Assembly (NCBI GenBank): GCA_963833985.1
Contig: CAWIAD010000002.1
Location: 3,456,001 to 3,520,000, forward strand
Source: an uncultured Planctomycetaceae bacterium
GTDB lineage: Bacteria > Planctomycetota > Planctomycetia > Isosphaerales > Isosphaeraceae
Direction of reading: 5' to 3'
DNA length: 64,000 nucleotides
Shown here in pieces: positions 42,917 through 63,038 of this stretch. The position numbers and the translations under genes are program-made. How positions within the stretch are numbered: position 1 is the first letter of the stretch; every line of letters starts with the position of its first letter. The notes under the pieces are model-generated. The model was not told the DNA's origin. It was given only the letters and a program-made list of their open reading frames with translations, and did not search any database.

Positions 42917-44412
42917 TCAGGTTGCGGAGGGCTTGGTACCGAGCATCACGAGCGTCTCTGCGATGCGGGCCCGGCAGGTATCCCGGCCCAGGATGAACAG
43001 GCAGTCGTAGAGGCCAGGGCCGACGCCCTGCCCGGTGGTCGCCACGCGCAAGGGGTTCACCACGTCGCCCATCTTGCGGCCCGACCGCTCGGCGTATTCG
43101 TGCACGGCCTGCTCAAGCGTTGCCAGGTTGTAAGGTTCCACCTCGGCCAGGACCGCGTCCAGCTCGGCGAGCATGCCAGGCACGCCCTCCTTGCGGAGCC
43201 GCTTCTTCACCGCGTCCGGATCGTGGGTCAGTTCCGCCGTGAAGAAGAACCGGCCCAGCTTGACGATATCGGAGAAGGTCTTCAGCCGGTCGCCGAGCGC
43301 CAGGATGACCGCCTCGATCTTCGCCCGCTCGGCGTCGGTGGCCGGGTCGGCAACCAGGCCCGCGCTCTTCAGAAAGGGGATCACTCCGGCGACCTTGCGG
43401 TCGAGCGGGAGCATCTTCATCCACTCGCCCTCGATCCAGAACAGCTTGTCCTGGTCGTGGCTGGCCGGCGAGCTGTTGACTCGCTCGAGCGTGAACTTCT
43501 CGATCAGCTCGGGCCGCATGAAGATCTCCTGCGTACCGTCATAGCTCCATCCCAGCCGCGCCAGGTAGTTGAGCACCGCGTCGGGCAGGTAGCCGCGCTC
43601 GATGTAATGGTGCAGGTAAACGAGCACGCCCTTCTTTTCGTACTCCTCGATCTTGCGCTTCGACATCTTCGCCTTCGACCCCGGCTCGGCCACATAGGGA
43701 ACGTGAGCGAACGCCGGCAGGGCGGCCCCGAGCGCCTCGAAGACCAGGAGCTGAGGGAACGTATTGGAGAGGTGCTCCTCCGCGCGGACGACATGCGTGA
43801 TCTGCATGGCGATGTCGTCCACCACGCTGGCGAAGTTATACAGCGGCGAGCCATCCGGCCGGACCACCACGAAGTCGCCGATCTCATCGGTGGAGAACGA
43901 AACGTCCCCCTTGATCAAGTCGTGGACCACGAGGGTGCGCCCCAGGGGAACCTGGAACCGCAAGGCATAAGGCCGGCCCTCGCTCGCATAGCGGGCTTCT
44001 TGCTCGGGCGCCAGCGGCAGCCGGCGGAACCGGTACGCGCGTTTGCGCGCTCGGCAGCGGCCTTCTCGGCGGCTCGCTCCGGCTCCGTGCTGTAGTCACG
44101 ATAGACGTGGCCGGAGGCGACCAGGCGCTCGACGGCCGCGCGATAGTGATCAGCCCGTTGCGACTGGTAGTACGGACCATGCGGACCACCCCTGTCCGGG
44201 CCCTCGTCCCAGTCGATACCGATCCAGCGAAAGCCGTCCAGAATCTTCTGGACCGCGTCCTCGACGTGCCGCTCCTGGTCGGTGTCGTCGATCCGCAGCA
44301 GGAACTGTCCCCCCGAGTGCCGGGCCAGCAGCCAGTTGAAGAGGGCCGTCCGCACACCGCCAATATGAAGGAAGCCTGTGGGACTGGGAGCGAAGCGGGT
44401 GCGTACGGTCAT
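42917..44412 (-). CDS. gltX: glutamate--tRNA ligase, frameshift at ~44046
   Basis: [35 protein letters not shown]...GP. Confidence 0.95.
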
Positions 44413-44876
44413 GGGGCGTCTTCGAGAGCCTCGGGCAAGTCGTTGACAGCCAGTAGCTTGCCTGCATGAGGCGGCCTGGCGGAATGCGAATCGGCGTCGC
44501 CGAACTGGACTCACGATAGGATCTGGGGCCGTGGCTGTCAACGCACCGCGCGGGCAAGCGGTGCGCAGCACTTCACTCACACCCGGCGAACCAGATGCCC
44601 GGCAGCCGGCGTTCTCTTCCACGCGCTCCCTGCGCCGGCATGTGCGCTGTCCGCCGGGCTAACCCCCGCGGTCGGAGACTCACGTCCGCTTCGCATCGAT
44701 GTTCCAGTGCAGGCGCTGGAGGGGTTCCGCGTTCCGCGAGCGCCGCGGACAATGACTGGCTTTCGCAGGGGGTTGCGCGGTACCTTCTTCCGGTCACATG
44801 ATCGCCGGACTGCGCGGGATGCCGATCGGGCTGATGCGCGCTGCGATACGGCTTCCTGTAAGCCCAGGAGAGTGCG

Positions 44877-48192: not shown

Positions 48193-49863
48193 GTGTCTGA
48201 CGGTGAAGGCCTCAAGCGAGTTTACGGGATTGACCTGGGAACGACGTACTCGGCCATCGCGTACGTGGACGAGCACGGCAAGGCGGTGATCGTCCCCAAC
48301 CAGGAGAGCGAGCGGATCACGCCCTCGGTCGTGCTTTTCGACGGCGACAACATCATCGTGGGCAACACCGCCAAGGAGTCGGCCAAGGTCGAGCCGCACC
48401 GGGTCGTCTCGCGCATCAAGCAGCACATGGGCGACCCGAATTTCGTCTTCCAGTACTCGGGGCAATCGTTTGGCCCCGAGGACATCTCGTCGTTCATCCT
48501 CCGCAAGGTGGCGGGCGACGCCCAGATCGTCACCGGTGAGGCGATCACCGACGTCGTCATCACCTGCCCGGCCTACTTCGGTACGCCCGAGCGCGAGGCG
48601 ACCGCCAACGCCGGACGCCTGGCGGGGCTGAACGTGCGCGCCATCCTGAATGAGCCGACGGCGGCGGCCATTGCCTACGGCCTGGAGCAGGGGGAGGACC
48701 AGACGGTCCTGGTGTACGACCTGGGCGGAGGCACGTTCGACATCACGATGATCGAGATCAAGGATCGACTCATCCGCGTGATCTGCACCGGCGGCGATCA
48801 TCGCCTGGGAGGCGTGCTCTGGGACGAGGCCATCGTCATGTACCTGGCCGAGCAGTTCCGGCAGCAGACCGCCGAGGAATCGGACCCGCTGGACGATCCG
48901 GAAGTCCTCAATGACCTGTTCCTCCAGGCAGAGCGCGGCAAGAAGACGCTCACCCAGCGCGAGAAGGCGCCATTCCGGGTGACCCACGCCGGCAAGCAGG
49001 CCCGCGTCGAGCTCGACCGCCCCAAGTTCGAGGAGATCACGCGGCACCTGCTGGACCGCACCGTCGAGCTGACGCGCGAGATGCTTGCAGACGCCCGTAC
49101 CAAGGGCCACACAACGTTTGACAAGGTCATCCTGGTGGGCGGAGCGACGCGCATGCCTCAGGTCAATGACCGCCTGGTCGCCGAGTTCAATCTTCAGCCC
49201 GAGATCTACGATCCCGATGAGGCCGTGGCCAAGGGTGCCGCGCTCTACGGGCTGAAGGAGTCGCTGCACGACGAGGTCCAGGAGATTCTCGCGAGCCGCG
49301 AGCTGGGCCAGGCCGGCGTCACCGGCCCGATCGACCTGAGCGACGTCCCCGAACAAGCGGTCGCCGAGGCGCTCGACCACCTGGAGAAGCAGCTCGGGTT
49401 CACGCTCACCGGACCGGTGCGCGAGCTGGTGGGCACGCGCATCGTGAACGTCCTGTCCAAGAGCCTGGGCGTGGTGGCGCGCGACCAGGAGAGCCGGGAC
49501 GTGGTCGTCTACCTCTTGCCTCGCAACACCGAGGTGCCCATGGAGCGGATGAGCGACTTCGGCACCGACGCCGACAACCAGTCGGCCGTTGACATCCGGG
49601 TCATGTCCGGCGAACGCGACAGTACCGAGCCGGCGGACTGCCAGGAAGTCGGCGTCGCCACGCTCAACCTCCCCGAAAAGCTTCCCGCACGCAGCCCCAT
49701 CCGCGTCAAGTTCGCCATCAACCAGGACGGCCGCCTGAACGTCTCGGCCGTGGACCTGACTGCCGGCGGCTCGATCGACGTCGAGTTCCAGACCGAGGCC
49801 GTGATGAACGCCGAGCAGGTCGAGGAACGATCCACGGCGCTGCGGTTGTTGACGGTGTCATGA
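48193..49863 (+). CDS. Hsp70 family protein (non-housekeeping paralog, no helical lid)
   Basis: [43 protein letters not shown]; ends soon after the beta substrate-binding domain; GTG start with GGAG RBS. Confidence 0.92.
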   Translation: MSDGEGLKRVYGIDLGTTYSAIAYVDEHGKAVIVPNQESERITPSVVLFDGDNIIVGNTAKESAKVEPHRVVSRIKQHMGDPNFVFQYSGQSFGPEDISSFILRKVAGDAQIVTGEAITDVVITCPAYFGTPEREATANAGRLAGLNVRAILNEPTAAAIAYGLEQGEDQTVLVYDLGGGTFDITMIEIKDRLIRVICTGGDHRLGGVLWDEAIVMYLAEQFRQQTAEESDPLDDPEVLNDLFLQAERGKKTLTQREKAPFRVTHAGKQARVELDRPKFEEITRHLLDRTVELTREMLADARTKGHTTFDKVILVGGATRMPQVNDRLVAEFNLQPEIYDPDEAVAKGAALYGLKESLHDEVQEILASRELGQAGVTGPIDLSDVPEQAVAEALDHLEKQLGFTLTGPVRELVGTRIVNVLSKSLGVVARDQESRDVVVYLLPRNTEVPMERMSDFGTDADNQSAVDIRVMSGERDSTEPADCQEVGVATLNLPEKLPARSPIRVKFAINQDGRLNVSAVDLTAGGSIDVEFQTEAVMNAEQVEERSTALRLLTVS

Positions 49864-49874
49864 AGGAGAAAGGA

Positions 49875-50018
49875 ATGTCGACCGCGGAGACCGCAGCTTT
49901 CATACGCGATGACCAACCCGGCACCGACACCCAGTGGGCCAGGGCCCTCCGGCAATGGGTGCGCGAAACGATCCTGCGGCGGGCACGATCCGCCGACCAG
50001 GGGTCCAGGAATCCATGA
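49875..50018 (+). pseudogene. internally deleted Uma2-family remnant (47-aa mini-ORF)
   Basis: MSTAETAAFIRDDQPGTDTQWARALRQWVRETILRR resembles the C-termini of both Uma2 genes ([38 protein letters not shown]); strong RBS; ATGA overlap with MNT. Confidence 0.65.
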
Positions 50019-50383
50019 CATCATCCCTGGCGGGGCAACTCGACGAGATCATCCGGCGCCTCGTTGCTGAGCTTGATCCGGATCGTGTCATGCTCTTCGG
50101 GTCGCACGCGTGGGGCCATCACGCCGAGGACAGCGACGTCGATCTTCTCGTCATCATCCCGGAGACGAAGGAACCTTCCGCATCGCGGGCTGCCCGGGCC
50201 CACCGCTGCTTGCGGGGCATTCCCCTTGCCATGGACCTGATCGTCAAGACGCGACAGGAGATGGACCGCTTCGGCGGCGTCGCGGGTTCCCTTGAAGCCG
50301 AGATTCTCAGCCGGGGAAAGGTTTTGTATGGACGAAGCGAAACGAGAGCTCGTGCAGAGCTGGCTCCGCAAGGCCGTCCATGA
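50015..50383 (+). CDS. minimal nucleotidyltransferase (MNT) 1
   Basis: LFGSHAWG...DSDVDLLV. Confidence 0.9.
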   Translation: MTSSLAGQLDEIIRRLVAELDPDRVMLFGSHAWGHHAEDSDVDLLVIIPETKEPSASRAARAHRCLRGIPLAMDLIVKTRQEMDRFGGVAGSLEAEILSRGKVLYGRSETRARAELAPQGRP

Positions 50384-50741
50384 CCTGAAGGCGGCCGGAT
50401 TGCTGGGCAAGAGCGACCCTCCACTCCTGGACGCGGCATTGTATCATTGTCAGGAAGCCGCGGAGAAAGCACTGAAAGGGTTTCTGGTCTACTTTGACCA
50501 GAGAGCGGGTCAGGTTCATGACGTTGGTCTTCTTCTGGAGCAGGCCGGGTCGATTGAACCGGTGCTCGCGACCTGGCACGACGCGGCCGATCGCCTCACT
50601 CCGCTCGCAGCCATGTATCGATACCCGATTTCATGGGACGAGCCTTTGCCGGAGCAATTCGAGGAAGCCTACCAGGATGCGGAGACGATCGTCAGACAGG
50701 TCCTCACGTTCTTACCCGGTGTCGTCCGTCCCGAGGCCTGA
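50328..50741 (+). CDS. HEPN domain protein 1
   Basis: WLRKAVHDL, YHCQEAAEKALK, HD, YRYP; overlaps MNT1. Confidence 0.9.
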   Translation: MDEAKRELVQSWLRKAVHDLKAAGLLGKSDPPLLDAALYHCQEAAEKALKGFLVYFDQRAGQVHDVGLLLEQAGSIEPVLATWHDAADRLTPLAAMYRYPISWDEPLPEQFEEAYQDAETIVRQVLTFLPGVVRPEA

Positions 50742-50843
50742 AAAGGAACCCGACCATGGCAACCGCCCTTGAGACTGCGGCCAGAACCGGCGCCGGCGAA
50801 CAACGCGTGCTCATCCGCGGGGTCGGCTGGCAGGGCTACCAGG
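50605..50843 (+). repeat. 239-bp direct repeat copy 1 (HEPN1 3' end + Uma2 5' end)
   Basis: matches 51627-51865 with about 3 mismatches. Confidence 0.92.
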
Positions 50844-51460
50844 AACTGCTGCGGATGGTAGGAAACCAACCGGTTCGCCTTACCTACGACCGGGGAGAAG
50901 TGGAGCTCATGTCGCCGCTGTACCGGCACGAAAGAAATCGCACACGCCTGGCTCGAATCGTCGAAATCCTGGCCGAGGAGTTGGGCATTCCCCTCATTGC
51001 CGCCGGTTCGACCACTCTCAATCGCGAGGACCTCGATCGCGGTCTCGAGGCAGACGCCGCGTTCTACCTGGGCGATCTGACGCGGATCAAAGACCGGGAT
51101 GAGCTTGATCTGGAGTCTGACCCGCCACCGGACCTTGCGATCGAGATCGAGATCACTCACTCTGTACTCAGCAGACTGGGTATCTACGGCGCGCTCGGTG
51201 TTCCCGAAATCTGGAGGTTCGACGGCAAGATCTTACGAATCCTCGCTCGCCAGGCGGACGGTTCTTATCGTGAGGCCCCCGGCAGCAAGTTCATGCCCTG
51301 GTTCTCGATCGCTGAGATCGCTCAATCCATGCGGCTCGAGGAGGACCGTGACGACAGCCAATGGGCTCGAGCGTTCCGAGCGTGGATCGCAGAGGTTGTG
51401 GCGCCGCGACTCAGGCAGGTCGACGATGATCGCACAGGGATTGCCAACGTGAGTACCTGA
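50756..51460 (+). CDS. Uma2 family endonuclease 1
   Basis: [48 protein letters not shown]. Confidence 0.92.
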
Positions 51461-51461
51461 C

Positions 51462-51626
51462 ATGTCTACCTTCGTCGGCATTGACCTGGGCACCACCAAC
51501 TCCGTCGTGGCGTATCGCAACCGCTACGGCCGTCCGGAGGTGATCGCCAACCGCGAGGGGCAGAACATCACGCCGTCGGTGACCTACTTCGGCAGTTCAC
51601 CCCTTCACTCAAGTCGGCGAGGCACA
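51462..51626 (+). repeat. hsp70-vWA 5' fragment copy A (133 bp) plus 32-bp tail
   Basis: 51462-51594 matches 53651-53783 with 2 mismatches; tail GTTCACCCCTTCACTCAAGTCGGCGAGGCACA shared with copy B. Confidence 0.95.
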
Positions 51627-51865
51627 TCGCAGCCATGTATCGATACCCGATTTCATGGGACGAGCCTTTGCCGGAGCAATTCGAGGAAGCCTACCAGGAT
51701 GCGGAGACGATTGTCAGACAGGTCCTCACCTTCTTACCCGGTGTCGTCCGTCCCGAGGCCTGAAAAGGAACCCGACCATGGCAACCGCCCTTGAGACTGC
51801 GGCCAGAACCGGCGCCGGCGAACAGCGCGTGCTCATCCGCGGGGTCGGCTGGCAGGGCTACCAGG
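51627..51865 (+). repeat. 239-bp direct repeat copy 2 (truncated HEPN1 3' end + Uma2 5' end)
   Basis: matches 50605-50843. Confidence 0.92.
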
Positions 51866-52452
51866 CTCTCATGGAAATGGTGGCCGAACAGCCGCTCCGG
51901 CTCACCTACGATCAGGGAGATCTTGAGCTGATGTCGCCCTTGTTCAAGCATGAGCGCCATCGATGTCTCCTGGCCCGGATCGTGGAAATCATCACGGTTG
52001 AACTTCAGATACCGAGGCTCACCGCGGGGTCGACAACGCTGAAACGACAGGACCTTGACCGCGGACTGGAGGCCGACGCGGCGTTTTACCTGGGTGACCT
52101 GTCGCGCATCTCCAACCGGGATGATCTCAACCTCGATGTGGACCCACCACCCGATCTCGCCATCGAGGTCGAGATCACGCGATCGGTACTCAGCAGGCTA
52201 GGAATCTACGGGGCCCTGGGTGTTCCAGAGATCTGGAGATTCGATGGTCGAACGTTACGGATTCTCGAACGGCAGATCGATGGATCATATCAGGAAACCA
52301 CGACGAGTAAGGTATTACCCTTTGTTTCTGTCCATGAGATAATGCAATTGGCGACAGAGGACCAACCGGACGAGTCTCGCTGGGAGCTAAGCGTGAGGCA
52401 GTGGGTCCAGGATGTCGTCTTGCCCAGGCTCCCTCGGGACGGGAGTGAATGA
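51778..52452 (+). CDS. Uma2 family endonuclease 2
   Basis: same N-terminus as Uma2-1, diverged body; [26 protein letters not shown]. Confidence 0.92.
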
Positions 52453-52460
52453 CCTCGGCC

Positions 52461-52625
52461 ATGTCCACCTTCGTCGGCATTGACCTGGGCACCACCAACT
52501 CCGTCGTGGCGTATCGCAACCGCTACGGCCATCCGGAGGTGATCGCCAATCGCGAGGGGCAGAACATCACGCCGTCGGTGACCTACTTCGGCAGTTCACC
52601 CCTTCACTCGAGTCGGCGAGGCACA
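52461..52625 (+). repeat. hsp70-vWA 5' fragment copy B (133 bp) plus 32-bp tail
   Basis: 52461-52593 matches 53651-53783 with about 5 mismatches; same tail as copy A (1 mismatch). Confidence 0.95.
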
Positions 52626-52678
52626 CGAGATCACCCAATGGGCGCACAAACCGGCAGTTGAGGAGCGAGAAGCTGACG

Positions 52679-53047
52679 ATGAGTGAACCGACCTGCGAAC
52701 CACTGGCCGAGATCACCCGGCGTCTGGTGGCCGAGCTCAATCCGGATCAAATCATTCTTTTCGGCTCGCGCGCGTGGGGACATCCCCGGGAGGATAGTGA
52801 TTACGATCTCTTCGTGGTTGTGCCTGAGGGTGGAATCGACGCGCTTCATCTCGCGGTCAAGGCGCATGAGTGCCTGAGCGACCTGGGCATCTCGAAGGAT
52901 GTGCTCGTCAGTACTCGGGAGAGGTTCGATCGCTTCAGTCGCGTCCCAGCTTCGCTGGAAGCGAAGATCCGCAGTCGAGGACTGGTGCTGTATGGACGAG
53001 GCCAAAAGGGAGCTGGTTCAACAATGGCTACGCAAGGCGTCGCATGA
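52679..53047 (+). CDS. minimal nucleotidyltransferase (MNT) 2
   Basis: ILFGSRAWG...DSDYDLFV; RBS GAGGAG. Confidence 0.9.
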   Translation: MSEPTCEPLAEITRRLVAELNPDQIILFGSRAWGHPREDSDYDLFVVVPEGGIDALHLAVKAHECLSDLGISKDVLVSTRERFDRFSRVPASLEAKIRSRGLVLYGRGQKGAGSTMATQGVA

Positions 53048-53408
53048 TCTGATCGCGGCTCGATCGCTCTCCCGAACAGAGCCGACTGTTAGGGACGTGG
53101 CGATTTATCATTGCCAGCAAGCGGCCGAGAAGGCCCTGAAAGCCTTTCTCGTCTTCAACGATCGGGAACCCGACCTGACTCACGATGTCGATCGACTCCT
53201 CGTTCAGGCTGCGGCCTTGAACTCCTCCTTCGCGGCGAGTCGACCGGCCGGCAGACGACTAACACCCTATGCAACACTGTATCGATATCCAAGTGGGAGC
53301 CTGGAGCCGAGCCTGGAACATCTCAACGAGGCTTTGCTTGATGCAGCCTCGATCTTCGATCAGACTCTTTCTTTCCTACCGGTGGACGTTCACCCTGACA
53401 GGGTTTGA
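52992..53408 (+). CDS. HEPN domain protein 2
   Basis: WLRKASHDL, YHCQQAAEKALK, THD, YRYP. Confidence 0.9.
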   Translation: MDEAKRELVQQWLRKASHDLIAARSLSRTEPTVRDVAIYHCQQAAEKALKAFLVFNDREPDLTHDVDRLLVQAAALNSSFAASRPAGRRLTPYATLYRYPSGSLEPSLEHLNEALLDAASIFDQTLSFLPVDVHPDRV

Positions 53409-53632
53409 TCGTGCTGAATGACCAGGATGGGTGCCGAAAAGAGACTGGTCAAGGGTTCGCTCATGTTCACTACCTTTTCTCACTTGACGGTCCAGGACGA
53501 CCGGCGCCAACACGCCCAAGCGACCTGGCGATTGTTTGCCCGAACTGTCACGCGATGATCCGTCGAGGGGGAGAGAACAGGCCCCTCGCAGGTCCTATTC
53601 CGGCGTCCCACGCAGACCCCTCCAAACACTGA
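53405..53632 (+). pseudogene. McrA-like HNH endonuclease C-terminal remnant
   Basis: GQGFAHVHY...SDLAIVCPNCHAMIR resembles the HNH pattern GF.HVHH...DL..VCPNCHAM.H; N-terminal part missing and His positions substituted. Confidence 0.7.
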
Positions 53633-53650
53633 GGTTTTGTCGAGTCTTCC

Positions 53651-55747
53651 ATGTCTACCTTCGTCGGCATTGACCTGGGCACCACCAACTCCGTCGTGGC
53701 GTATCGCAACCGCTACGGCCGTCCGGAGGTGATCGCCAACCGCGAGGGGCAGAACATCACGCCGTCGGTCATCTACTTCGGCACCGATCCGCCCGCGGTG
53801 GGCCAGGAGGCCAAGGAGTGGGCGCGGCTGGGTGACGCCGAGATCGCCAGCTTCTTCAAGCCGCACATGGGCTCCCCGCTCTACCAGCTTCAGTTTCACG
53901 CCAAGACTTACTCGGCCACCGATCTTTCCACGTTCGTGCTTGCCCGCCTCAAGGCCGACGCCGAGCAGGCGCTTGGCCAGGACGTCGACCGCGCCGTGAT
54001 CACCGTGCCGGCCTACTTCGGCGACGCCCAGCGCAAGGCCACACTCGAGGCCGGCACTGCCGCCGGGTTCCAGGTGCTGCGCATCATCAACGAACCCACC
54101 GCCGCAACCCTCGCTTACGGCCTGAACCGCAACGGTCCGGGGAGTGAGACGGTGCTCATCTACGACCTGGGTGGTGGCACCTTCGATGTCACGGTCGCCC
54201 GGATCGCGGCCGAGGACATCACCGTGCTGGCCACGGCGGGCGACCACGACCTGGGCGGCAAGAACTGGGACGACCGCATCGCCACCTTCCTGGCCGAGCA
54301 GTTCGCCGCGCGCACCGGGTTCGATCCGCTCGACGATCCGGTCGCACTGAACGAGGTGCTCGTCCGCAGCGAGCAGGCCAAGTGGGCGCTTTCGGAACGG
54401 ACGACGACCCGGATCACGCTTCAGCTTGGCACCCGGCGGGAAAGCTTCGAGCTGGCGCGAACCGAGTTCGAGGCCATGACGTTCCCGCTCATGGACCGGA
54501 CGCGCCGGCTCACCGAGGAAGCGCTGGCCGAGGCCCGGCTGGACTGGCATCGCCTGGATGGCGTGCTGCTGGTGGGCGGATCGACCCGCATGCCCATGGT
54601 CCGCTCCTACGTCTCGGAGATGGCCGGCAAGCCACCCCGGACGGGAGTGAACGTGGACGAGGTGGTCGCGCTGGGCGCGGCAGTCCAGGCGGCCATCGAG
54701 GTCGGCGAGCCGATCGGCGACGCCGTGCCGAAGTTCACGCTCGCGTCGGGCGGTACCCGGGTGGCTGCCGCGCAGCCGGCCGCGCGCCGGGTCACCGACG
54801 TCATGTCGCATAGCCTGGGAACGGTGGCCATCAGCGCTGACGCCTCGAGCTACGTCAACGACATCCTGATCCGCCGCAACATCCCCATTCCGGCGCGGAA
54901 CACGAAGACCTACATTCATGCCACGCACGGCGGGGCCAATAACCGGCTCGAGGTCTTCCTGACCCAGGGCGAGAGCACCTCCCCGCTGGACTGCACCATC
55001 CTCGGCAAGTACGTCTTCACGGGCATCCACGCCACCGACGCCGAGGTGAAGGTGGACGTGGGCATTTCGTATGACGTCAATGGCGTGGTGCAGGTCCAGG
55101 CGCAGCAGCGCGACACGGGCCACAGCCTGGCCCTCGCGGTCGAGCCGGTTCCGGACGACCTGTCGTGGCTGGGCCAGCCGCCCGAGTTTGCCGTCGTGGG
55201 TGAGCCACAGCGGATCCGCGTGTTCCTGCTCATCGACGTCTCCTCGAGCATGATCGGCCAGCCGCTCATCGAGGCTCAGACGGCAGCCGCGGAGTTCCTC
55301 GAGCGCTGCGACTTCACCACCATGGAAGTGGGTTTGATCTCGTTCTCGAGCCTGGTGGCGCTCCAGTGCGCGGCGACGAGCAACGCGCGCAGGCTGCACG
55401 CCGCGGTTGGCCGGCTCGAGGCGGAAGGTTCGACGAACCTCACCGACGCCCTGGAGATGGCGCGCGGACAGCTTGTGGCCAGCGACTGGAAGCGGTACGT
55501 CGTGATCCTCACCGACGGCTATCCCGACGCCGCCGAGAGTGCCGTCGAGCAGGCCTTGGCGGCGCGCGGCCAGGGGATCGAGATCGTTGCCATCGGCACC
55601 GGTGAGGCCGACCGCGATTACCTGAGCCGCCTGGCCAGCAGCGAGCGGGCGTCGATCTTCGCCCGCAGTGGCGAGCTGGTGCAGACGTTCGGGCATATCG
55701 CCCGGATGATCGCCGAGGGAGGCCGCGGCCTGCGGGTGCTGACATGA
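53651..55747 (+). CDS. Hsp70-vWA fusion protein
   Basis: [38 protein letters not shown]-terminal vWA with MIDAS DVSSSM...T...ILTDG. Confidence 0.92.
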
Positions 55748-56661
55748 CGCGGACCGCCCCGGCGCCCAACATCGTCCAGGCTCCGCCGCGACCGCGGCCC
55801 CGGTCCGCCGCCCGCTCGGCCAGCCTGCGGCAGGCGTACGACCTGGCGCTCGCCGGCGCGATCGGCGCCCTGTTCGGGCTGTACCTCTATGTTGAGCTGG
55901 TGCAGGCCGAATCCGTCTACGTGCGCGATGCCCTGGCCGGAGGCATCATCGGCGGGTCGATCGGCTGTTTCCTGTCGGCCTGGGGGCCGTTCCGCGATGG
56001 CGCCTGGCACAAGCTCGCGCGCGCCGTGTCCTGGGGAGTGCCGGCGGCCGCGGTGGGCGGAGCGATCGGGCTCGTGGCCGGCGAGCTCGTCATCGGCCTG
56101 CTGCGGGGGGGCCTGCTGGGCCGTGCCTGTTCCTGGGCCGTCCTGGGGCTGGGCATTGGCCTGGGCCAGGGCCTTGCCGAGCGGTCGCGGCAACGTCTTG
56201 TCTTCGGACTCATCGGCGGCGGGCTCGGCGGCTTCGTCGGCGGTTACTGCTTCGAGCTGCTGCGGGTCGCGCTGGGCAACCGCTACGACCTGGGCCAGGC
56301 CGTGGGCATTGTCATCCTGGGCGGCGGGCTGGGCCTCTTCCTGGCGCTCGTGGAGCAGGCCTTGCGGAGGGCCTGGATCCAGGTGCAGAGCGGTCGACAA
56401 GAGGGCCGTACGTACCTGCTGGCGCACCGGCACTGCCGGCTTGGCCTGGACGAGCGGGCCGAGGTGGGCCTCTTCGGCGATCCGGAAATTGCGCGCCAGC
56501 ATGCCGAGATCGAGGCCACGCCCCAGGGATTCATTTTCCGCCACCTGGCGGCGCAGCGGTCCTCGCGGCTGAACGGGAAGCCGGTCACCGGTCCGGAGCC
56601 CTTGCACGACGGCGACCGGCTGGAGCTCGGCAAGACTACCCTGCTGTTCCGACAGCGCTAG
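55744..56661 (+). CDS. multi-TM protein with C-terminal FHA-like domain
   Basis: Gly-rich TM helices, then LFGDPEIARQHAEI...LNG...LHDGDRLELG; ATGA overlap. Confidence 0.85.
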   Translation: MTRTAPAPNIVQAPPRPRPRSAARSASLRQAYDLALAGAIGALFGLYLYVELVQAESVYVRDALAGGIIGGSIGCFLSAWGPFRDGAWHKLARAVSWGVPAAAVGGAIGLVAGELVIGLLRGGLLGRACSWAVLGLGIGLGQGLAERSRQRLVFGLIGGGLGGFVGGYCFELLRVALGNRYDLGQAVGIVILGGGLGLFLALVEQALRRAWIQVQSGRQEGRTYLLAHRHCRLGLDERAEVGLFGDPEIARQHAEIEATPQGFIFRHLAAQRSSRLNGKPVTGPEPLHDGDRLELGKTTLLFRQR

Positions 56662-56670
56662 CGAGCGGAC

Positions 56671-58182
56671 ATGGCAAGCAGGCAAGACCCCACTCACTGG
56701 ATTCTCGAACTGGCCCGCGGCCGGGAGATCGGGCACCGGTACACCCTCGCCAGCGGCGACACCGTGCTGGGCAACGACCTGGCCGGCGCGGCCGGGTTTG
56801 ATATGTCCGGGCAGGAGCCGAGCTCTCCCCGGCGCATGGCCGGCCGGCATGCCTGCCTTACCCTGGCCGGTGGATCACTCGGCATCCGGGACATGGAGAG
56901 CCCCGGCGGCACCTTCGTGAACCGCCAGCGCCTGCTTTCCGGCCAGACGCGCGCGCTCCAGCCCGGCGACGTGATCCAGATGGGCGGCATTCAGCTCGTC
57001 GTGAAGCGGGAAGCCGCGTCCCCGGCACCTGCGCCATCACCCCCGCCCGTGCCGACGCCACTCCAAGCAGAACCGCGACCGCAACGGCAACCAGAACCGC
57101 CCACGCAGGCCAAGGCCGGCCCGCTTGCCGTGCCGTTCACGATACAGGGCGGTCCCACGTGCCGGAGCTGGGATGATTTCTTGACGATCTCGGCCCAGCG
57201 CTGGAGCGTCATGCGGGACGAGCTGACCTCGGGCCGCATCGGTGCGCACCTGAGGCGGGCGGGCCGTACCGACCTGGTCCCGCGTCTGGACCCGGCACTG
57301 TCGGCCGACGAGCAGCTCGACGCCTGGCTGGCGCAATTGCCGGCGAGCCGGTCCAGTGCGCCGGAGCTCGAGGTGCATCCGCCGTTGTTGATCGTGAAAG
57401 GCCCGGGCGGCGGGGTGATCCGCAAATCGCTGCGCGTCACCAACGTCGGCTACCGGCTCTTGCGGAGCACGGCGCGCATCGAACCGCCAGCAAGCACGAA
57501 CCTGCGGATTGGTGCCGAGCTCGCCTCCAGGAGCTTCGCCACCATCGACTCCACCGACCTTCCTGTTGAGATCACGCTCCCGGAACGCGGTGAGACCGCG
57601 GCGCTGGGCTTGGTCGTCATCGACAGCAATGGCGGCACTCAAAAGGTGGAGGTGCGCTTCGAGCGTTCCGTCGCCGGTTTCCTGCCGGCCGACGCGTTCC
57701 CTGCGACCGCAGCGCCCGACCTGCTCGCGGGAACCCGGCCCCTGGGCGAGCGGGTGTCTGCGCAGCCCTTTGTCCGCCGGCTGATCGTGCTGCCGATCGT
57801 CCTGGTGGTCTTCCGGTTGCTGGTCCTGGCGGCGGGACAGATCCCGATCGGGACCCCGAACGCCGGCGGGTTCGAGCCGCGCCTGGGCTCGCTGGCGCTG
57901 GTGCTGGGTGCCGTGGGGGCGGTCCTGGCCAGCACGCGGCAGCGCGCCGGCGGCGATCGTTTGGCGTGCGGGTTCAGCGGTGCGATCGCCGGAGTGCTGG
58001 CCGCGGCCATCGGTTTCGCCGTGGTCCGCGGCGTCGAGGCGACGCTTGGCAGTTGGGCCGGCTCGCCGGTCGCCGCACTCGCGCTCTGGGCGGTGATGGG
58101 GCTGCTCATCGCGCTGGTCTCGTGGCTGGCTTTTCCACCGGCCCCAGCGCTTTCCGCGCTTCCACCGGAGCCGCAACCATGA
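56671..58182 (+). CDS. FHA - Pro linker - Ig-like - TM protein
   Basis: MAGRHACL...DMESPGGTFVN...LQPGDVIQMG; LRVTNVGYRLL beta domain; C-terminal TMs. Confidence 0.85.
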   Translation: MASRQDPTHWILELARGREIGHRYTLASGDTVLGNDLAGAAGFDMSGQEPSSPRRMAGRHACLTLAGGSLGIRDMESPGGTFVNRQRLLSGQTRALQPGDVIQMGGIQLVVKREAASPAPAPSPPPVPTPLQAEPRPQRQPEPPTQAKAGPLAVPFTIQGGPTCRSWDDFLTISAQRWSVMRDELTSGRIGAHLRRAGRTDLVPRLDPALSADEQLDAWLAQLPASRSSAPELEVHPPLLIVKGPGGGVIRKSLRVTNVGYRLLRSTARIEPPASTNLRIGAELASRSFATIDSTDLPVEITLPERGETAALGLVVIDSNGGTQKVEVRFERSVAGFLPADAFPATAAPDLLAGTRPLGERVSAQPFVRRLIVLPIVLVVFRLLVLAAGQIPIGTPNAGGFEPRLGSLALVLGAVGAVLASTRQRAGGDRLACGFSGAIAGVLAAAIGFAVVRGVEATLGSWAGSPVAALALWAVMGLLIALVSWLAFPPAPALSALPPEPQP

Positions 58183-59243
58183 CAATCAGAGCCATCACGG
58201 CAAGTCTGCTGGCCGCACTGGCCCTCGTGGCCTGCACGGGGTCAGCCGGCGCGGCGTGGGACGAGGAGCCACCCGATCGCGGTGTGGCGAACCAGCCCGG
58301 CGAGAGCACGGTCGTGGTGACGGGCGCCAGCCAGCAGCAGTTTCCCCGCATCGCCGTTCAGTTCGAGGTCCGCCAGCCCGATGGCTCGTTCCTGCTCGAC
58401 GCGACGCGCAACGAGTTCCGGGTCACGGAGGATGGCAAGGACGTCGAGGTGCTCGACTTTCAGGCACCCCGGACCAGGGAATCCATTCCCACCACGATCG
58501 TACTGGTCGTCGATCACAGCGGCAGCATGGAGCAAGAGCACCGGATCAGCTCGCTCAAGGAGGCCGTCATTTCGTTCCTGCAAAAGGTGCCCGAGGGCTC
58601 GCGGGTGGCCGTCGTCGGCTTCAGCTCGGAAGTCCGCGAGCTCTGCCCGTTCACGACGGACCGCGCGCAGGTCGGCCGATCCGTCAATCGGCTCAGGCCG
58701 GGAGGTGCCACCCGGTTTTACGACGCCGTCTCGCACGCGCTGGGGATGCTCGACGAGCAGACCGGACGACGGGCGGTGCTTGCCCTCACCGACGGGGAAG
58801 ACACATCCAGTGAGGACGATACGATCGAGACGGCCATCGCCAAGGCGCAACGGCTGGGATTGCCGGTCTACACCCTGGGCCTTGGCACCGAGGAAGAGAT
58901 CGCCAGCGCCGACCTGCGCCGCCTGGCCACTTCCACACGCGGCCAGTATTACCCGGCGCACAACGCCGACCAGCTCAAGACCATCTACGAGACCATCGCC
59001 GCCCGCATCGGCGCCGGTTACACGCTGGTTTACCAGAGCGACCGGCGTCTTCCTGACGGCACGCTGCGGCCCGTGAAGATCTTTCATCGCGGCAGCCAGA
59101 AAGCGGGCGAAACGGAAGTCTTCATACCCGGCATGGTGGTCCCCGCGGGTGGCTGGTCGGGTCTCTTCCTGGCGCTGCTGGCACTCCTGTCAACGCTCGC
59201 GCTGCTTCCATCGTGGACGAAACGACGCGGTGGAACTCGTTGA
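58179..59243 (+). CDS. exported vWA domain protein with C-terminal TM anchor
   Basis: signal peptide, FRVTEDG, MIDAS DHSGSM...T.FYDAV...LTDGED. Confidence 0.9.
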   Translation: MTIRAITASLLAALALVACTGSAGAAWDEEPPDRGVANQPGESTVVVTGASQQQFPRIAVQFEVRQPDGSFLLDATRNEFRVTEDGKDVEVLDFQAPRTRESIPTTIVLVVDHSGSMEQEHRISSLKEAVISFLQKVPEGSRVAVVGFSSEVRELCPFTTDRAQVGRSVNRLRPGGATRFYDAVSHALGMLDEQTGRRAVLALTDGEDTSSEDDTIETAIAKAQRLGLPVYTLGLGTEEEIASADLRRLATSTRGQYYPAHNADQLKTIYETIAARIGAGYTLVYQSDRRLPDGTLRPVKIFHRGSQKAGETEVFIPGMVVPAGGWSGLFLALLALLSTLALLPSWTKRRGGTR

Positions 59244-59290: not shown

Positions 59291-61150
59291 ATGGGACCGC
59301 GACGTCATCTGGCTCGCTGGCTCCGCCTCGCCATGATCTCGGCGACTGGTGCGCTTTTGATCCTGAGCCTGATGCTGCTTCCGGACCTGGCGGGATTTCT
59401 TCCCCGTGTGATTCGCAACCACGCGCTGGAATGGTCGGCCCTGGCACTCGTGCTGGCATTGTGGCGGCTGCACGTTGTCACCTTGGCTCAACCGCCGGAT
59501 GATCCCGCGGCTGCGCGGCTGCGCCGGTTGTTCGCGGGTCTCGATTCGCTTTCCGCCTTCGTCCTCGATAGCGGGTTCGTCGTCCTGCTGGGCATCATGG
59601 CCGCGGCGATGCTGGCGAGCTGGATCCCCCACTACTTGACGTGGCCCTGGAGCCGCGACGCAGACAGTTACGCCACGCTCGCCCTGTCCTGGGATGCGGG
59701 CGTCCGGCCGTACCGCGATATCCTCTTCTATAACTTCCCCGGGCACGTTTACTTGCACTGGCTCATCGGCCGGACCTTTGGCTGGGGGCGGACTGTCCCG
59801 TTCTACGCGGTGGACGCGACGGCCCTGCTAGCGCTCGGTGCGGTTCTCCTGGCCTGGAGCCGGCGCGCGCTGGGACGCTGGCTGCCGGGTCTGCTGGGGT
59901 ACGTCGTGTTCCTTGGCTTCTACCTGGGCCGAGATTTCGAGCAGGTCGCCCAGCGCGACTGGCATACGTCGCTGGCCGCGGCCCTGGCGCTCTTGACGCT
60001 GGAGGCCTGGCCGCGACGCGCCGGGCTCTGGGCGGCGGCCCTGCTCACGGCCCTGGCGCTGACCATCCGGCCTCACGCGGTGCTGTTCTTGCCGGCGCTC
60101 GTCGCGGCCGTGGTCCAGCGTCCTCGACCCTGGCAATCCCTTGCGGAATGGATCTCAGTGCTCGTGCTCCTTGTCGCGCTCGGGTTCGTGCCGGTGGCGG
60201 CGCAGGGGTTGCTGCACGACCTGGTACGCAACCTGAGAGTCGCCAGCTACGGCGGTCCTTACAACAAGGCGACTCTCCCCGGCGCGCTCGAGATCCTCGC
60301 CGCCGAGCTGAGCGAGCCCTGGACGCTGCTTCTGGCTGGCTCGCTGATCGTGCTCTCCTTTGCGGGCCGGGAACGCATCCGTCCCATGGCGCGGACCTGG
60401 CTGCTTGCCCTGGGAGCAGCCATCCTGTACCGGACGGTTCATCCCCGCCAGCACGCCTACCTGGCGCATCCGCTGGTTCTCTTCAGCTCCATCGCCCTGG
60501 CGTTGCTGGTGGACAGCCTGATCGCGGCGTCCTGGCCTGGCCGGTCCGTGCGCGCGCTCGTGCTGCTGGTGCTCTTCCTCGAAGCCTTTCCGGGCGTGCC
60601 GCAGTTCTGCGATTCGCGCGCCAGTATCGAGGCCATCGGGCCGCTGGTTCGGGGCGAGGAGCCCGCCGACCCTCCCCCCAGTGTTCGCTATCTCTGGTTC
60701 CAGCCCGTGGCGTGCCCCTACGAGTGGACCGACTACCGCGACACGCTGAACTACCTGCGCCGAACCACGAGTCCGGCCACCGAGATCGCCAACGTGCTCA
60801 AGCAGCCTCCGTTTCCTGCCATCAATGGGCCGGTGGGCCGGCTTTCGCCGTTCCATGCCGACTCGGGCATCTGCTGGATGTGGCTGGTGGACCTGGATCT
60901 GGAGATCCCCTTCGCCGAAGCTCTGGAACGCACGCCGGATTCGGTGGTCGTCTGGTCGCCCGCCGAGGTGAACCTGCCGACCCGCCTGCGGCTCGAGCGG
61001 ATCACGGAGGTGATCCTCCACTTCTATCGTCCCGCAGCGCGGTTCGGCGCGATCGAGGTCTGGACGCGTCAGCCGGATGTGGACAGCGGACGGACGCCGG
61101 TTGCGGGGAATCCGGGCTCCTCGGGGACGCTTCCACCGGTCCAGCAGTAG
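59291..61150 (+). CDS. polytopic membrane protein, GT-C glycosyltransferase-like (paralog 1)
   Basis: many TMs; WPWSRDADSYATLALSWDAGVRPYRDILFYNFPG loop motif. Confidence 0.75.
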   Translation: MGPRRHLARWLRLAMISATGALLILSLMLLPDLAGFLPRVIRNHALEWSALALVLALWRLHVVTLAQPPDDPAAARLRRLFAGLDSLSAFVLDSGFVVLLGIMAAAMLASWIPHYLTWPWSRDADSYATLALSWDAGVRPYRDILFYNFPGHVYLHWLIGRTFGWGRTVPFYAVDATALLALGAVLLAWSRRALGRWLPGLLGYVVFLGFYLGRDFEQVAQRDWHTSLAAALALLTLEAWPRRAGLWAAALLTALALTIRPHAVLFLPALVAAVVQRPRPWQSLAEWISVLVLLVALGFVPVAAQGLLHDLVRNLRVASYGGPYNKATLPGALEILAAELSEPWTLLLAGSLIVLSFAGRERIRPMARTWLLALGAAILYRTVHPRQHAYLAHPLVLFSSIALALLVDSLIAASWPGRSVRALVLLVLFLEAFPGVPQFCDSRASIEAIGPLVRGEEPADPPPSVRYLWFQPVACPYEWTDYRDTLNYLRRTTSPATEIANVLKQPPFPAINGPVGRLSPFHADSGICWMWLVDLDLEIPFAEALERTPDSVVVWSPAEVNLPTRLRLERITEVILHFYRPAARFGAIEVWTRQPDVDSGRTPVAGNPGSSGTLPPVQQ

Positions 61151-61162
61151 TGAGCCGAAGGC

Positions 61163-63038
61163 ATGATGACCCGGACGAAATGGAGGCACTGGCTACGCAT
61201 GCTGCTGGCGGCGGTTGCGATCGCGCTGGCGGGCGCCGGACTGATGATCGTTCCGGACACGATCCGGTTGTGGCCACGCTTCCTCCGCGACCATCCCCTG
61301 GAATGGCTATGCCTGGGGCTCGTGATCGCGTTCCAGCAGGCCAGATCGCACGCGCGGTCCCGGCCGCTCGATGACCCGGGAGCCGTCCGGCTGCGCGGGT
61401 CTCTGGCCCGGCTCGAAGAATCTCAGCGGCCGCGCCTTGAACGGGGGATTCACGGTGGCCCTGGCCATCCTTATTATCATCCTCCTGGCAAGCTGGATCC
61501 CCCATTACCTGACCTGGCCCTGGTGCCGCGATGAGGACACCTTCGCCACGCTCGCCCAGTCGTGGGACGCCGGCATCCGACCGTATCGCGACATTCGCGC
61601 GTATAACTTTCCGGGCCATATCTATCTGCACTGGCTGCTCGGCAAGGTTCTGGGGTGGGGACACACGGCGCCCTTTTACGCCGTTGATGCGTCCGCGGTG
61701 CTGGGGCTGGGCGTGGCGCTGGTGTTCTGGAGCCGGCGACGACTGGGAGGATGGCTGCCCGGCCTGCTGTCCTTCGTGGCGTTCCTTCAGTTCTATCTCA
61801 GCCGCGAGTACGAGCAGGTCGCCGAGCGTGACTGGCACGCGACGCTCGCAGCCGTCCTGGCGATCATGACGCTCGAGGCATGGCCGCAGCGACCGGCCGT
61901 CTGGCTGGCCGCGGCGCTGGAGGCGGCAGCCGTGACAATCCGTCCCCATGCCATCTTCTTCCTGCCCGCGATCGCCTCGGCCCTCATGGAGCGGCGCCGG
62001 CCGCGCCGAGGGCTCGCCGAGTGGGGCCTGGCGTTCACCGCGTTCGTCGCCCTGGCCTTCGCGCCGCTGGTGATCGACGGATTGCTCGACGACCTGATCC
62101 GCGGACTCCGCGTTGCCGCGTACGGAGGTCCCTACAGCAAGGCCTCTCTGACCGTGGCCAGAGAGGCGCTTGAGCTCGAGCTGCGTGATCCCTGGACAAT
62201 CTTCCTGGCGGCGTCGCTGATCGTGGTCTGGGCGTTCCACCGCCTTGTCGGCCGTCCCATGGCGCGGACCTGGCTGCTCGCCCTGGCAGCCGCGATCCTT
62301 TACCGGACGGTTCATCCGGTTCAGCATGCGTACCTGATGCATCCGCTGGCCCTGGTGAGCGCGATGGTCCTGGCCCTGCCGGTCGCCTCATTGCTTTCCC
62401 TGTCCTGGATTGCGCAGCCGGTGCGCGCGCTGCTGATCCTGCTTCTTTTCCTAAAAGCCTTTCCCGGTCGGCCCTTGAACTGCGATCCGGGCGACAGCCT
62501 GCGCGCGATCGTCTCGATAGCGTGCGGCCAGGACCCGGAGGCTCCGCCCTCAGGCTGCCGCTACTTCTGGTTCCGGCCGAAGGCGTGCAATTACGAGTGG
62601 CGTGACTACTGCCGGACGCTGGCCTACCTGCGGCACACCACCAGTCCGGCGACCGAGATCGCCAACGTGCTGCGGCTCCAGCCGTTTCCATCGCTCAATG
62701 GGCCGGTGGGCCGGCTTTCGCCATTCCGGGCGGAATCCGGGATCTGCTGGATGTGGCTGATCGACATCGACCTGGATGGTCCATTCGCCGAGGCCCTGGA
62801 AAACACTCCGGATTCGGTGGTGGTCTGGTCGCCCGATGAGGGTGATCGCCAGCCGCGCCTGCGGCTCGAGCGGGTCTCGGCGGTGATCCGGCGTTGCTAT
62901 CGTTTCGACGCCCGGTTCGGTGCCATCGAGGTGTGGAGGCGATCCGCTGCGGACGAAGCCGCGCGAACTCCAATGCCCGGCAGCCCCGCGGCATCGGGGT
63001 CGAGCCCGCCCGCGATCGCAGTGCCACCCCGACGATAG
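61163..63038 (+). CDS. polytopic membrane protein, GT-C glycosyltransferase-like (paralog 2), frameshift at ~61397
   Basis: colinear with paralog 1 (WPWCRDEDTFATLAQSWDAGIRPYRDI); removing one G after GCGC restores RLRGLWPGSKNLS in register with paralog RLRRLFAGLDSLS. Confidence 0.75.

Follow-up and report, generated by a model that had tools for sequence, protein, structure and literature searches.

Why does the start of one gene occur three times within a single operon, among small genes of the Uma2 and toxin-antitoxin (TA) kind? The question is raised by a 64,000-nucleotide stretch of DNA (hereafter the window) from an uncultured Planctomycetaceae bacterium of the family Isosphaeraceae (GCA_963833985.1, contig CAWIAD010000002.1, positions 3,456,001 to 3,520,000), in which a row of such genes lies between two Hsp70 genes, hsp70-A and hsp70-vWA, and the repeated start is that of hsp70-vWA. 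An initial annotation of the window had taken this gene start for a homology anchor through which small cargo modules are repeatedly added, swapped and eroded, giving an integron-like array. Comparison with relatives showed that the hsp70-A/hsp70-vWA junction is a swappable slot across Isosphaeraceae, and we consider it rather likely that the array consists of slot alleles in tandem, stacked by host recombination in which one joint is homologous and the other illegitimate, the truncated gene starts (stubs) being the scars.

Gene-start stubs in the hsp70-A/hsp70-vWA array

The genome to which the window belongs (G000) measures 10.16 Mb in 2 contigs without N and is 96% complete. Sequence comparison confirmed the three copies of the hsp70-vWA start that had been reported at the outset: the first 133 bp of the gene are present at 51462, 52461 and 53651, the last being the intact gene (53651..55747) that forms the conserved downstream flank. 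Stub 1 (51462..51594, 131/133 identical) and stub 2 (52461..52593, 128/133 identical) differ from it at 2 and 5 positions, respectively, and in 18 aligned relatives the hsp70-vWA start departs from the window gene at 9 positions or more, indicating that the window stubs arose in this lineage. The 133-bp repeat has three local copies only; elsewhere in the genome blastn found just a 44-bp match to another hsp70-like start. Both stubs continue into a common 32-nt tail with 1 difference, and with this tail a decayed Uma2 3' end begins (pairwise local score matched by 0/1000 shuffles); tail copy 1 (51595..51626) is truncated and tail copy 2 (52594..52678) runs into the next gene, MNT2. Stubs and tails are part of a tandem pair, 50605-51626 and 51627-52625, whose flanks are 98-99% identical over 240 and 166 nt whereas the Uma2 body is ~70% identical, and tail copy 1 is joined to the following HEPN1 3' copy with zero microhomology. 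An imperfect hairpin, with 8/10 pairs by eye, can be drawn at the stub/tail joints (51578-51601 and 52577-52600) and takes in both positions where the two stubs depart from intact hsp70-vWA. Hairpins centred on joints were not accepted as a feature of the arrays (9 joints, P about 0.06-0.09 against position-shuffled joints).

Module identities were taken from a Pfam scan of the window proteins with family cut-offs applied. Downstream of hsp70-A (48193..49863, Pfam HSP70), the conserved upstream flank, comes a Uma2 remnant (49875..50018), in which an internal deletion has joined the gene start to the last ~125 nt of a slot Uma2 that we call b-type; it matches the first ~20 and last ~125 nt of slot Uma2 in relatives. 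It is followed by MNT1, a minimal nucleotidyltransferase (50015..50383, Pfam NTP_transf_2), HEPN1 (50328..50741, PF05168), Uma2-1 (50756..51460, PF05685; PADLOC candidate PDC-S17, E=1.7e-34), stub 1 with its tail, a HEPN1 3' fragment (51627..51763) that is the left flank of the second tandem unit, Uma2-2 (51778..52452, PF05685), stub 2 with its tail, MNT2 (52679..53047, NTP_transf_2), HEPN2 (52992..53408, PF05168) and an HNH-like remnant (53405..53632). The array lies wholly on the + strand and has a GC content of 0.604, compared with 0.661 and 0.682 in the flanking genes. The order, strand and Uma2/MNT-HEPN cargo first described were borne out, the HNH remnant being weak in Pfam (E=0.047, below cut-off). 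The claim that no integrase or transposase lies nearby also held, since none of these families was found among the window proteins scanned (17 + 29; about a dozen of the 56 called open reading frames (ORFs) lay outside the scan).

The junction is a variable slot across the family

We searched 121 genomes of the family, fetched 95 junction regions and placed both flanks in 86 of them, which together with the window gives 87 loci. The hsp70-A/hsp70-vWA gap is 6 bp at its smallest and 4973 bp at its largest, and it is longer than 300 bp in 63/87 loci, compared with 0/77 at the neighbouring hsp70-vWA/FHA1 junction and 3/56 at FHA1/FHA2; the operon's fourth junction carries one extra gene in 25/51. 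Uma2 occurs in the slot in 36 of the 87 loci, HEPN in 16, MNT in 15, PIN and AF2212-like genes in 8 each, two membrane-protein families in 10 and 9, and ParE and an AAA ATPase in one locus each, with 0 antisense matches among the assigned cargo. The remaining junctions (24/87, 300 bp or less) are of the empty-site type, and a same-species empty site for G000 is not among them. In named isolates, the slot is empty in four Singulisphaera and in Aquisphaera insulae, and it holds one Uma2 in Paludisphaera, two Uma2 in Tundrisphaera and a zinc-ribbon membrane gene in Tautonia. Thus, the hsp70-A/hsp70-vWA junction is a family-wide swappable slot, and the repeated addition, swapping and erosion of cargo that had been claimed for the window are seen in the variable slots of its relatives, with no dedicated recombinase nearby. 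Slot cargo without Pfam or PADLOC match includes two recurring proteins, one of ~340 aa and membrane-anchored (L066:4883-5893) and one of ~220 aa with a zinc ribbon and membrane segment (L079:7168-7830), and a 412-aa protein with an AF2212-like C-terminal segment encoded upstream of PIN (L032:4532-5767).

Examination of the junction in relatives, which the initial annotation had called for, revealed further copies of the gene start in G006, G007 and G003 and in 8 of the 16 loci recovered by a metagenome pattern scan, whose pattern was genus-biased by design. Over the window and relatives, seven stub lengths occur, 18, 20, 30, 32, 52, 56 and 133 bp, of which 32 bp belongs to G006, 18 and 30 bp to G007, 20 bp to L151 and 133 bp to the window. 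All stubs begin at the hsp70-vWA start codon, because cargo ends at the start codon, and each covers less than 150 bp of the 2.1-kb gene. They gather substitutions, some of which are common to the G006 and L150 stubs, so that not all stubs are independent. The earlier idea of regular punctuation between cassettes was not sustained, as, of the multi-module genome junctions (at least 24), three have clear stubs, and the stubs are decaying and length-variable; scars, rather than required punctuation, would be the best reading of them.

Slot alleles in near-identical contigs

The cargo lineages are tied to the locus. HEPN1 has 26 matches in 19/121 genomes: the 19 at 47% identity or more are all in the slot (14 relatives and G000), and the other 7, at 41% or less, lie outside it. 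In a tree that left out the non-slot paralogs of other genomes, some of which reach 48-50% identity, a branch with 100/100 support divides 54 slot Uma2 from 9 paralogs of G000. Two slot types, Uma2 a and Uma2 b, sit on separate deep branches, and Uma2-1 and Uma2-2 are sisters (99/92), aided by a common N-terminus (first ~85 nt). In a quick version of a HEPN tree, HEPN1 groups with the single allele of G005, its closest relative (68%), and HEPN2, which is 53% identical to HEPN1, with one G007 allele (76%); MNT2 is 50% identical to MNT1 and 69% to a G007 allele. The deep a/b branches and the placement of the two HEPNs indicate that stacked partners are old lineages and not local duplicates. G007 itself contains two HEPN alleles with 51 identical terminal bp.

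Single and stacked states of the same alleles are found among the metagenome contigs. L160 carries Uma2 a alone and L161 Uma2 b alone; L149 carries Uma2 a, a 56-bp hsp70-vWA stub joined to the last ~30 bp of hsp70-A, and Uma2 b; and L154 has the a+b array plus a 52-bp stub and a truncated MNT. L149 and L154 retain both flanks, and the a/b joint is partly visible in L146, L147, L153 and G003. Over 300 nt of hsp70-A, L149, L154, L156/L159, G005 and L161 have 3-5 differences, yet they hold four different contents. Moreover, L161 and L149 differ at 3/300 positions in the body of hsp70-A and at 8/30 at its tip, all synonymous (Fisher p=2.5e-7), and in relatives the last ~25-30 nt of hsp70-A move with the cargo allele. 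Since near-identical hsp70-A bodies hold different contents and the tip is divergent, the unit moved is the whole slot with its flanking tips, including the hsp70-A 3' tip, and not a free cassette as had been proposed. The two joints with a visible donor have 2 bp common to both sides. The 56-bp joint, the only one with both parents visible, is found no more than ~7 bp from the end of the homology between alleles a and b in hsp70-A. It fits a model in which hsp70-A would be the anchor and the stub the too-short far end, and the hsp70-vWA start may not be the homology anchor. In G003 the a-stub-b block (contig 434, 1987-3330; L111) has a CHAT/caspase-like region on one side and a transposase-like ORF on the other, apart from any Hsp70 operon; the queries used detected neither of the two Hsp70 orthologues in that assembly (92% complete, 600 contigs).

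A second slot and other gene-end copies in the genome

Recurring gene starts with cargo upstream were also sought by a repeat scan of G000, which yielded a second slot with the same scar (G000:C2:5463500-5469400, - strand; L162), between a DUF362 gene and a 4Fe-4S membrane gene. Its order is DUF362, three Uma2, a 145-nt stub of the gene start joined to a Uma2 3' tip, DUF433-DUF5615 and the intact gene, and it also holds a 24-nt copy of the DUF362 end. In 20 relatives this gap measures 27-2128 bp and contains its own Uma2 types and zero clear stubs. A locus with DUF444 (yeaH), a 142-aa gene, four Uma2 and spoVR (G000:C2:1948900-1955100, - strand; L102) is probably a third operon slot.

Copies of gene ends or starts were noted around other modules as well. 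Downstream of dprA, the 3' end of this gene recurs twice, and unrelated cargo, a redoxin and a PEP-CTERM protein, lies between the two copies (G000:C1:1163100-1169400; L164), and comM, like dprA a DNA-uptake gene, has a 182-bp 3' copy around ParE and a transposase (L167). Such copies at fabF (340 bp), hsdS (106 bp) and a GTPase gene (464 bp) surround PIN modules (among L165, L166, L163, L097 and L168), and others accompany HigBA at an M28 peptidase gene (~90 bp) and a Hint-domain ORF at selB (93 bp). Local direct repeats surround 9/27 PIN and 9/61 Uma2 genes versus 3.1% of random intervals; this enrichment was not used as main evidence, since on inspection many of the repeats were REP/MITE-like or Uma2 tandem repeats.

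Proposed stacking by host recombination and its alternatives

How could a slot allele be added next to another without a dedicated enzyme? As a rule, DNA from a close relative would recombine within both flanking genes, and the two crossovers would exchange the slot without leaving a scar. Where the incoming fragment ends 18-150 bp into hsp70-vWA, however, that arm would be too short to recombine and could be joined illegitimately, so that the resident allele would be kept and the array would grow; the length of the stubs, all below 150 bp, would follow from stacking taking place when one arm is too short. Deletions and recombination between stubs would then erode or collapse the array. Stacking might occur in one step by homology-facilitated illegitimate recombination, through a circle, or by duplication followed by replacement, in each case by host enzymes. 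Homology-facilitated illegitimate recombination leaves a short joint microhomology of 3-8 bp. The 56-bp joint fits a one-sided anchor, whereas in the 1-kb pair of the window the duplication extends to either side of the Uma2 body (240 and 166 bp), which fits duplication-then-replacement or a circle equally. G000 has recA (~10 kb upstream of the array), dprA and two adjacent Ku genes.

Several points weigh against stacking of imported alleles. The comEC match of G000 is split over two frames (G000:C2:3102822-3103702) by a frameshift or a sequencing error, and transformation may thus have been lost. Clear stubs are confined to one genus, outside which one borderline 16-mer only was seen (G116), and the erosion of scars in most multi-gene arrays is an assumption. 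Patchy cargo across genera could partly reflect ancestral presence and loss, and 5 junctions hold unrelated genes, which in the 3 inspected are reversed (a DeaD helicase and others). Some of the metagenome contigs nearly duplicate genomes that the count includes (L156/L159 with G005, L158 with G006), the order of the array comes from the assembly, circles and copy-number variants being hypothetical, and no same-cargo tandem intermediate was seen among the loci compared. One-step insertion explains the 51-bp HEPN tip of G007 less simply than duplication-then-replacement. Lastly, the genome-wide survey was confined to tyrosine recombinases, without serine recombinases and transposases.

This last point bears on the possibility that the hsp70-vWA start contains an att site used by a recombinase whose gene lies elsewhere, so that every inserted cassette would supply a new gene start. 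That every stub begins at the start codon, that the cargo is small and on the same strand, and that the genome has 13 tyrosine-recombinase matches would suit such an enzyme, but the nearest of these matches lies ~170 kb from the array, the seven stub lengths have no common core, the stubs decay, and the same scar is present at an unrelated gene in the second slot. In G000 the best score against the integron-integrase model TIGR02249 was 98.9 bits, below its cut-off of 265, and the stubs, which have no attC-like fold, folded no better than shuffles (z=+0.25 and -0.21); 1/8 stretches folded well (z=-3.05), its copy-2 counterpart not. We therefore regard a site-specific recombinase as very improbable. 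A homing-like process, which we hold to be unlikely, would make the Uma2 proteins nucleases faithful to their locus: an allele without the Uma2 gene would be cut close to the hsp70-A tip or the hsp70-vWA start, and repair of the break would copy the gene in, stubs being mis-repair. It would account for the own Uma2 lineages of each slot and for the 8 synonymous differences per 30 nt in the hsp70-A tip linked to Uma2 b, as expected of an immune target site; Ku is present, and every stub-bearing slot array seen has Uma2 or its remnant. On the other hand, the slot also shows turnover of alleles that have MNT-HEPN, PIN or membrane-protein genes and no Uma2, the gene-end duplications at fabF, hsdS and the peptidase gene flank PIN or HigBA with no Uma2 seen, empty alleles persist, and the nuclease activity of Uma2 is putative. 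No solved structure related to Uma2-1 by sequence was found. Equally doubtful is the fuller form of this idea, that Uma2 would be chromosomal, free-standing homing-type nucleases, one lineage per operon junction, which cut rival alleles at the flanking tip, spread through repair and ferry TA/defence modules into an integron-like, integrase-free array.

Could the array have arisen with no imported alleles, by local tandem duplication and ordinary divergence and decay? The 1-kb pair is a tandem repeat and the window Uma2 are tree sisters. However, noncoding and pseudogene flanks 98-99% identical enclose Uma2 bodies of ~70% identity, HEPN1 and HEPN2 are each nearer to another genome's allele than to each other, and alleles a and b exist apart as single genes, which refutes local duplication for most units and leaves it with a very small probability overall. 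An assembly chimera of strain variants was considered too, as the array order comes from the assembly and the source may be a metagenome; nevertheless, the copies have private substitutions and unique joints in a two-contig assembly without N, and independent assemblies contain the same joint type, with one joint in six records, so that an artefact of this kind is hardly to be expected. A reverse-transcriptase route was rejected, none of the 24 reverse-transcriptase matches in the genome (many repeated or split) being linked to the slot. Stacking of slot alleles by host recombination accordingly stays our preferred explanation.

Function of the cargo and context of the operon

The defence/TA label first given to the cargo stands at the family level; of the features of class I type VII systems (HepT/MntA), the MNT motif is present and the HEPN motif absent. 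MNT1 and MNT2 have an intact GSX10DXD motif and score below the NF047752 cut-off, and the RX4HXY motif of PF01934/PF08780 HEPNs occurs in 0/14 slot HEPNs, HEPN1 included, which as PF05168 proteins are class II. Toxicity of class II HEPNs is left open in the relevant passages of Yao 2020 (PMC7641770). The cargo likely rides on the operon transcript; a promoter/terminator scan, which is a weak test, detected no promoter-like site and two terminator-like ones, as chance alone would give. The cargo likely serves defence or selfish persistence, and a defence role might be conjectured for operon and cargo together.

The operon continues with membrane-FHA, FHA-membrane and vWA genes (55744..59243, + strand), whose first junction is invariant in relatives. 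At E<=1e-25, a search of 300 further genomes from the phylum gave no match to the vWA part of hsp70-vWA. Distant relatives of the Hsp70 pair (44-46% identity) sit with GrpE, zinc-ribbon/FNIII protein and DO-GTPase matches (L254, L258); no GrpE, FNIII protein or zinc-ribbon GTPase adjoins the window pair. The junction of the distant pairs varies too: two hold a ~880-aa gene, one has an additional, third Hsp70, and that of L260 is empty. The ~880-aa genes, uncharacterised and 55% identical to each other, belong to Bacteroidota records (L254:2344-4974 and L258:2302-4962). Elsewhere in the window there are two tandem paralogous membrane proteins without Pfam match (59291-63038, ~70% DNA identity) and a glutamyl-tRNA-synthetase-like gene, recognised from its translation, split over two frames (42917-44622, - strand).

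Relation to known systems and significance

Integrons hold small same-strand cargo rich in TA-like genes, in variable order and behind an upstream promoter. The slot resembles them in its small, same-strand, TA-like cargo, variable order and likely single upstream promoter; it differs in that no IntI and no attC-like fold were found and in its variable breakpoints (18-133 bp stubs). The term integron-like is therefore apt for the outcome, and the array is no integron.

Closer parallels exist in the literature, as far as the portions cited here go. Furuta, Abe & Kobayashi 2010 (PMC2853133) describe restriction-modification units inserted with long target duplication, and our locus is alike in its defence-type genes, long variable direct repeats and lack of a mobility gene: the insert has a unique direct repeat above 30 bp (133 bp) and no mobility gene, and empty sites occur (24/87 junctions of 300 bp or less, and single-allele L160 and L161; not same-species for G000). 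The insertions they treat are single, whereas here they are repeated at one junction, the repeat is a gene start, the cargo is Uma2, MNT-HEPN and PIN, and intermediates are visible. Kirchberger 2017 (PMC5361080) reports Vibrio cholerae type VI secretion system (T6SS) effector-immunity arrays and Rhs/CDI orphan arrays, integrase-free and likened to integrons, for which homology-facilitated illegitimate recombination along with commoner clean homologous replacement is proposed, as may be the case here. In those arrays, however, a portion of the toxin gene serves as anchor and selection comes from the immunity genes that are kept, whereas our slot is bordered by two distinct Hsp70 genes and filled with stand-alone modules unrelated to them. 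According to Oliveira 2017 (PMC5635113), 27% of horizontal gene transfer hotspots have no integrases and transposases, and their content turns over when homologous recombination takes place in the core genes on both sides, as in our scheme; that study is statistical and works at species level, whereas the present slot is intra-operon and family-wide, with its own cargo lineages and stacking.

Yao 2020 and Makarova 2009 (PMC7641770; PMC2701414) describe PF01909/PF05168 pairs with GSX10DXD, Uma2 paralog cassettes and strain-variable MNT-HEPN within an operon in Thermus. Their passages on these give no insertion mechanism, and our slot has a HEPN subfamily confined to one locus. Among the predicted GAP1-N2 GTPase conflict systems of Kaur 2020 (PMC7159879) there is a theme with Hsp70 and GrpE, which, as far as outlined there, resembles the distant relatives of our Hsp70 pair, with their GrpE, zinc-ribbon/FNIII and DO-GTPase neighbours, and differs from the window pair, which is followed by FHA and vWA genes with no adjoining GrpE or GTPase. 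A search mostly without subscription papers and supplements found no published account of this locus; the source data of Kaur 2020 may list the operon. The kind of mechanism is already known; what is new is that stacking has happened repeatedly in one operon slot found across a family, that the cargo is bound to this locus, and that intermediates can be seen.

Single scars are usually the basis for inferring how small TA-like and Uma2 genes come to lie in operons when no transposase is involved. In the present slot, empty, single, double, triple and eroded states in near-identical sequences make a stack-and-collapse cycle readable. Were the homing idea true, it would also answer an old question, namely why Uma2 genes have expanded in particular lineages; G000 has 62 Uma2 matches (next to 27 PIN). 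For the Planctomycetes themselves, the slots offer a bounded place to mine candidate defence genes, namely class II MNT-HEPN pairs, Uma2 and the two membrane-protein families.

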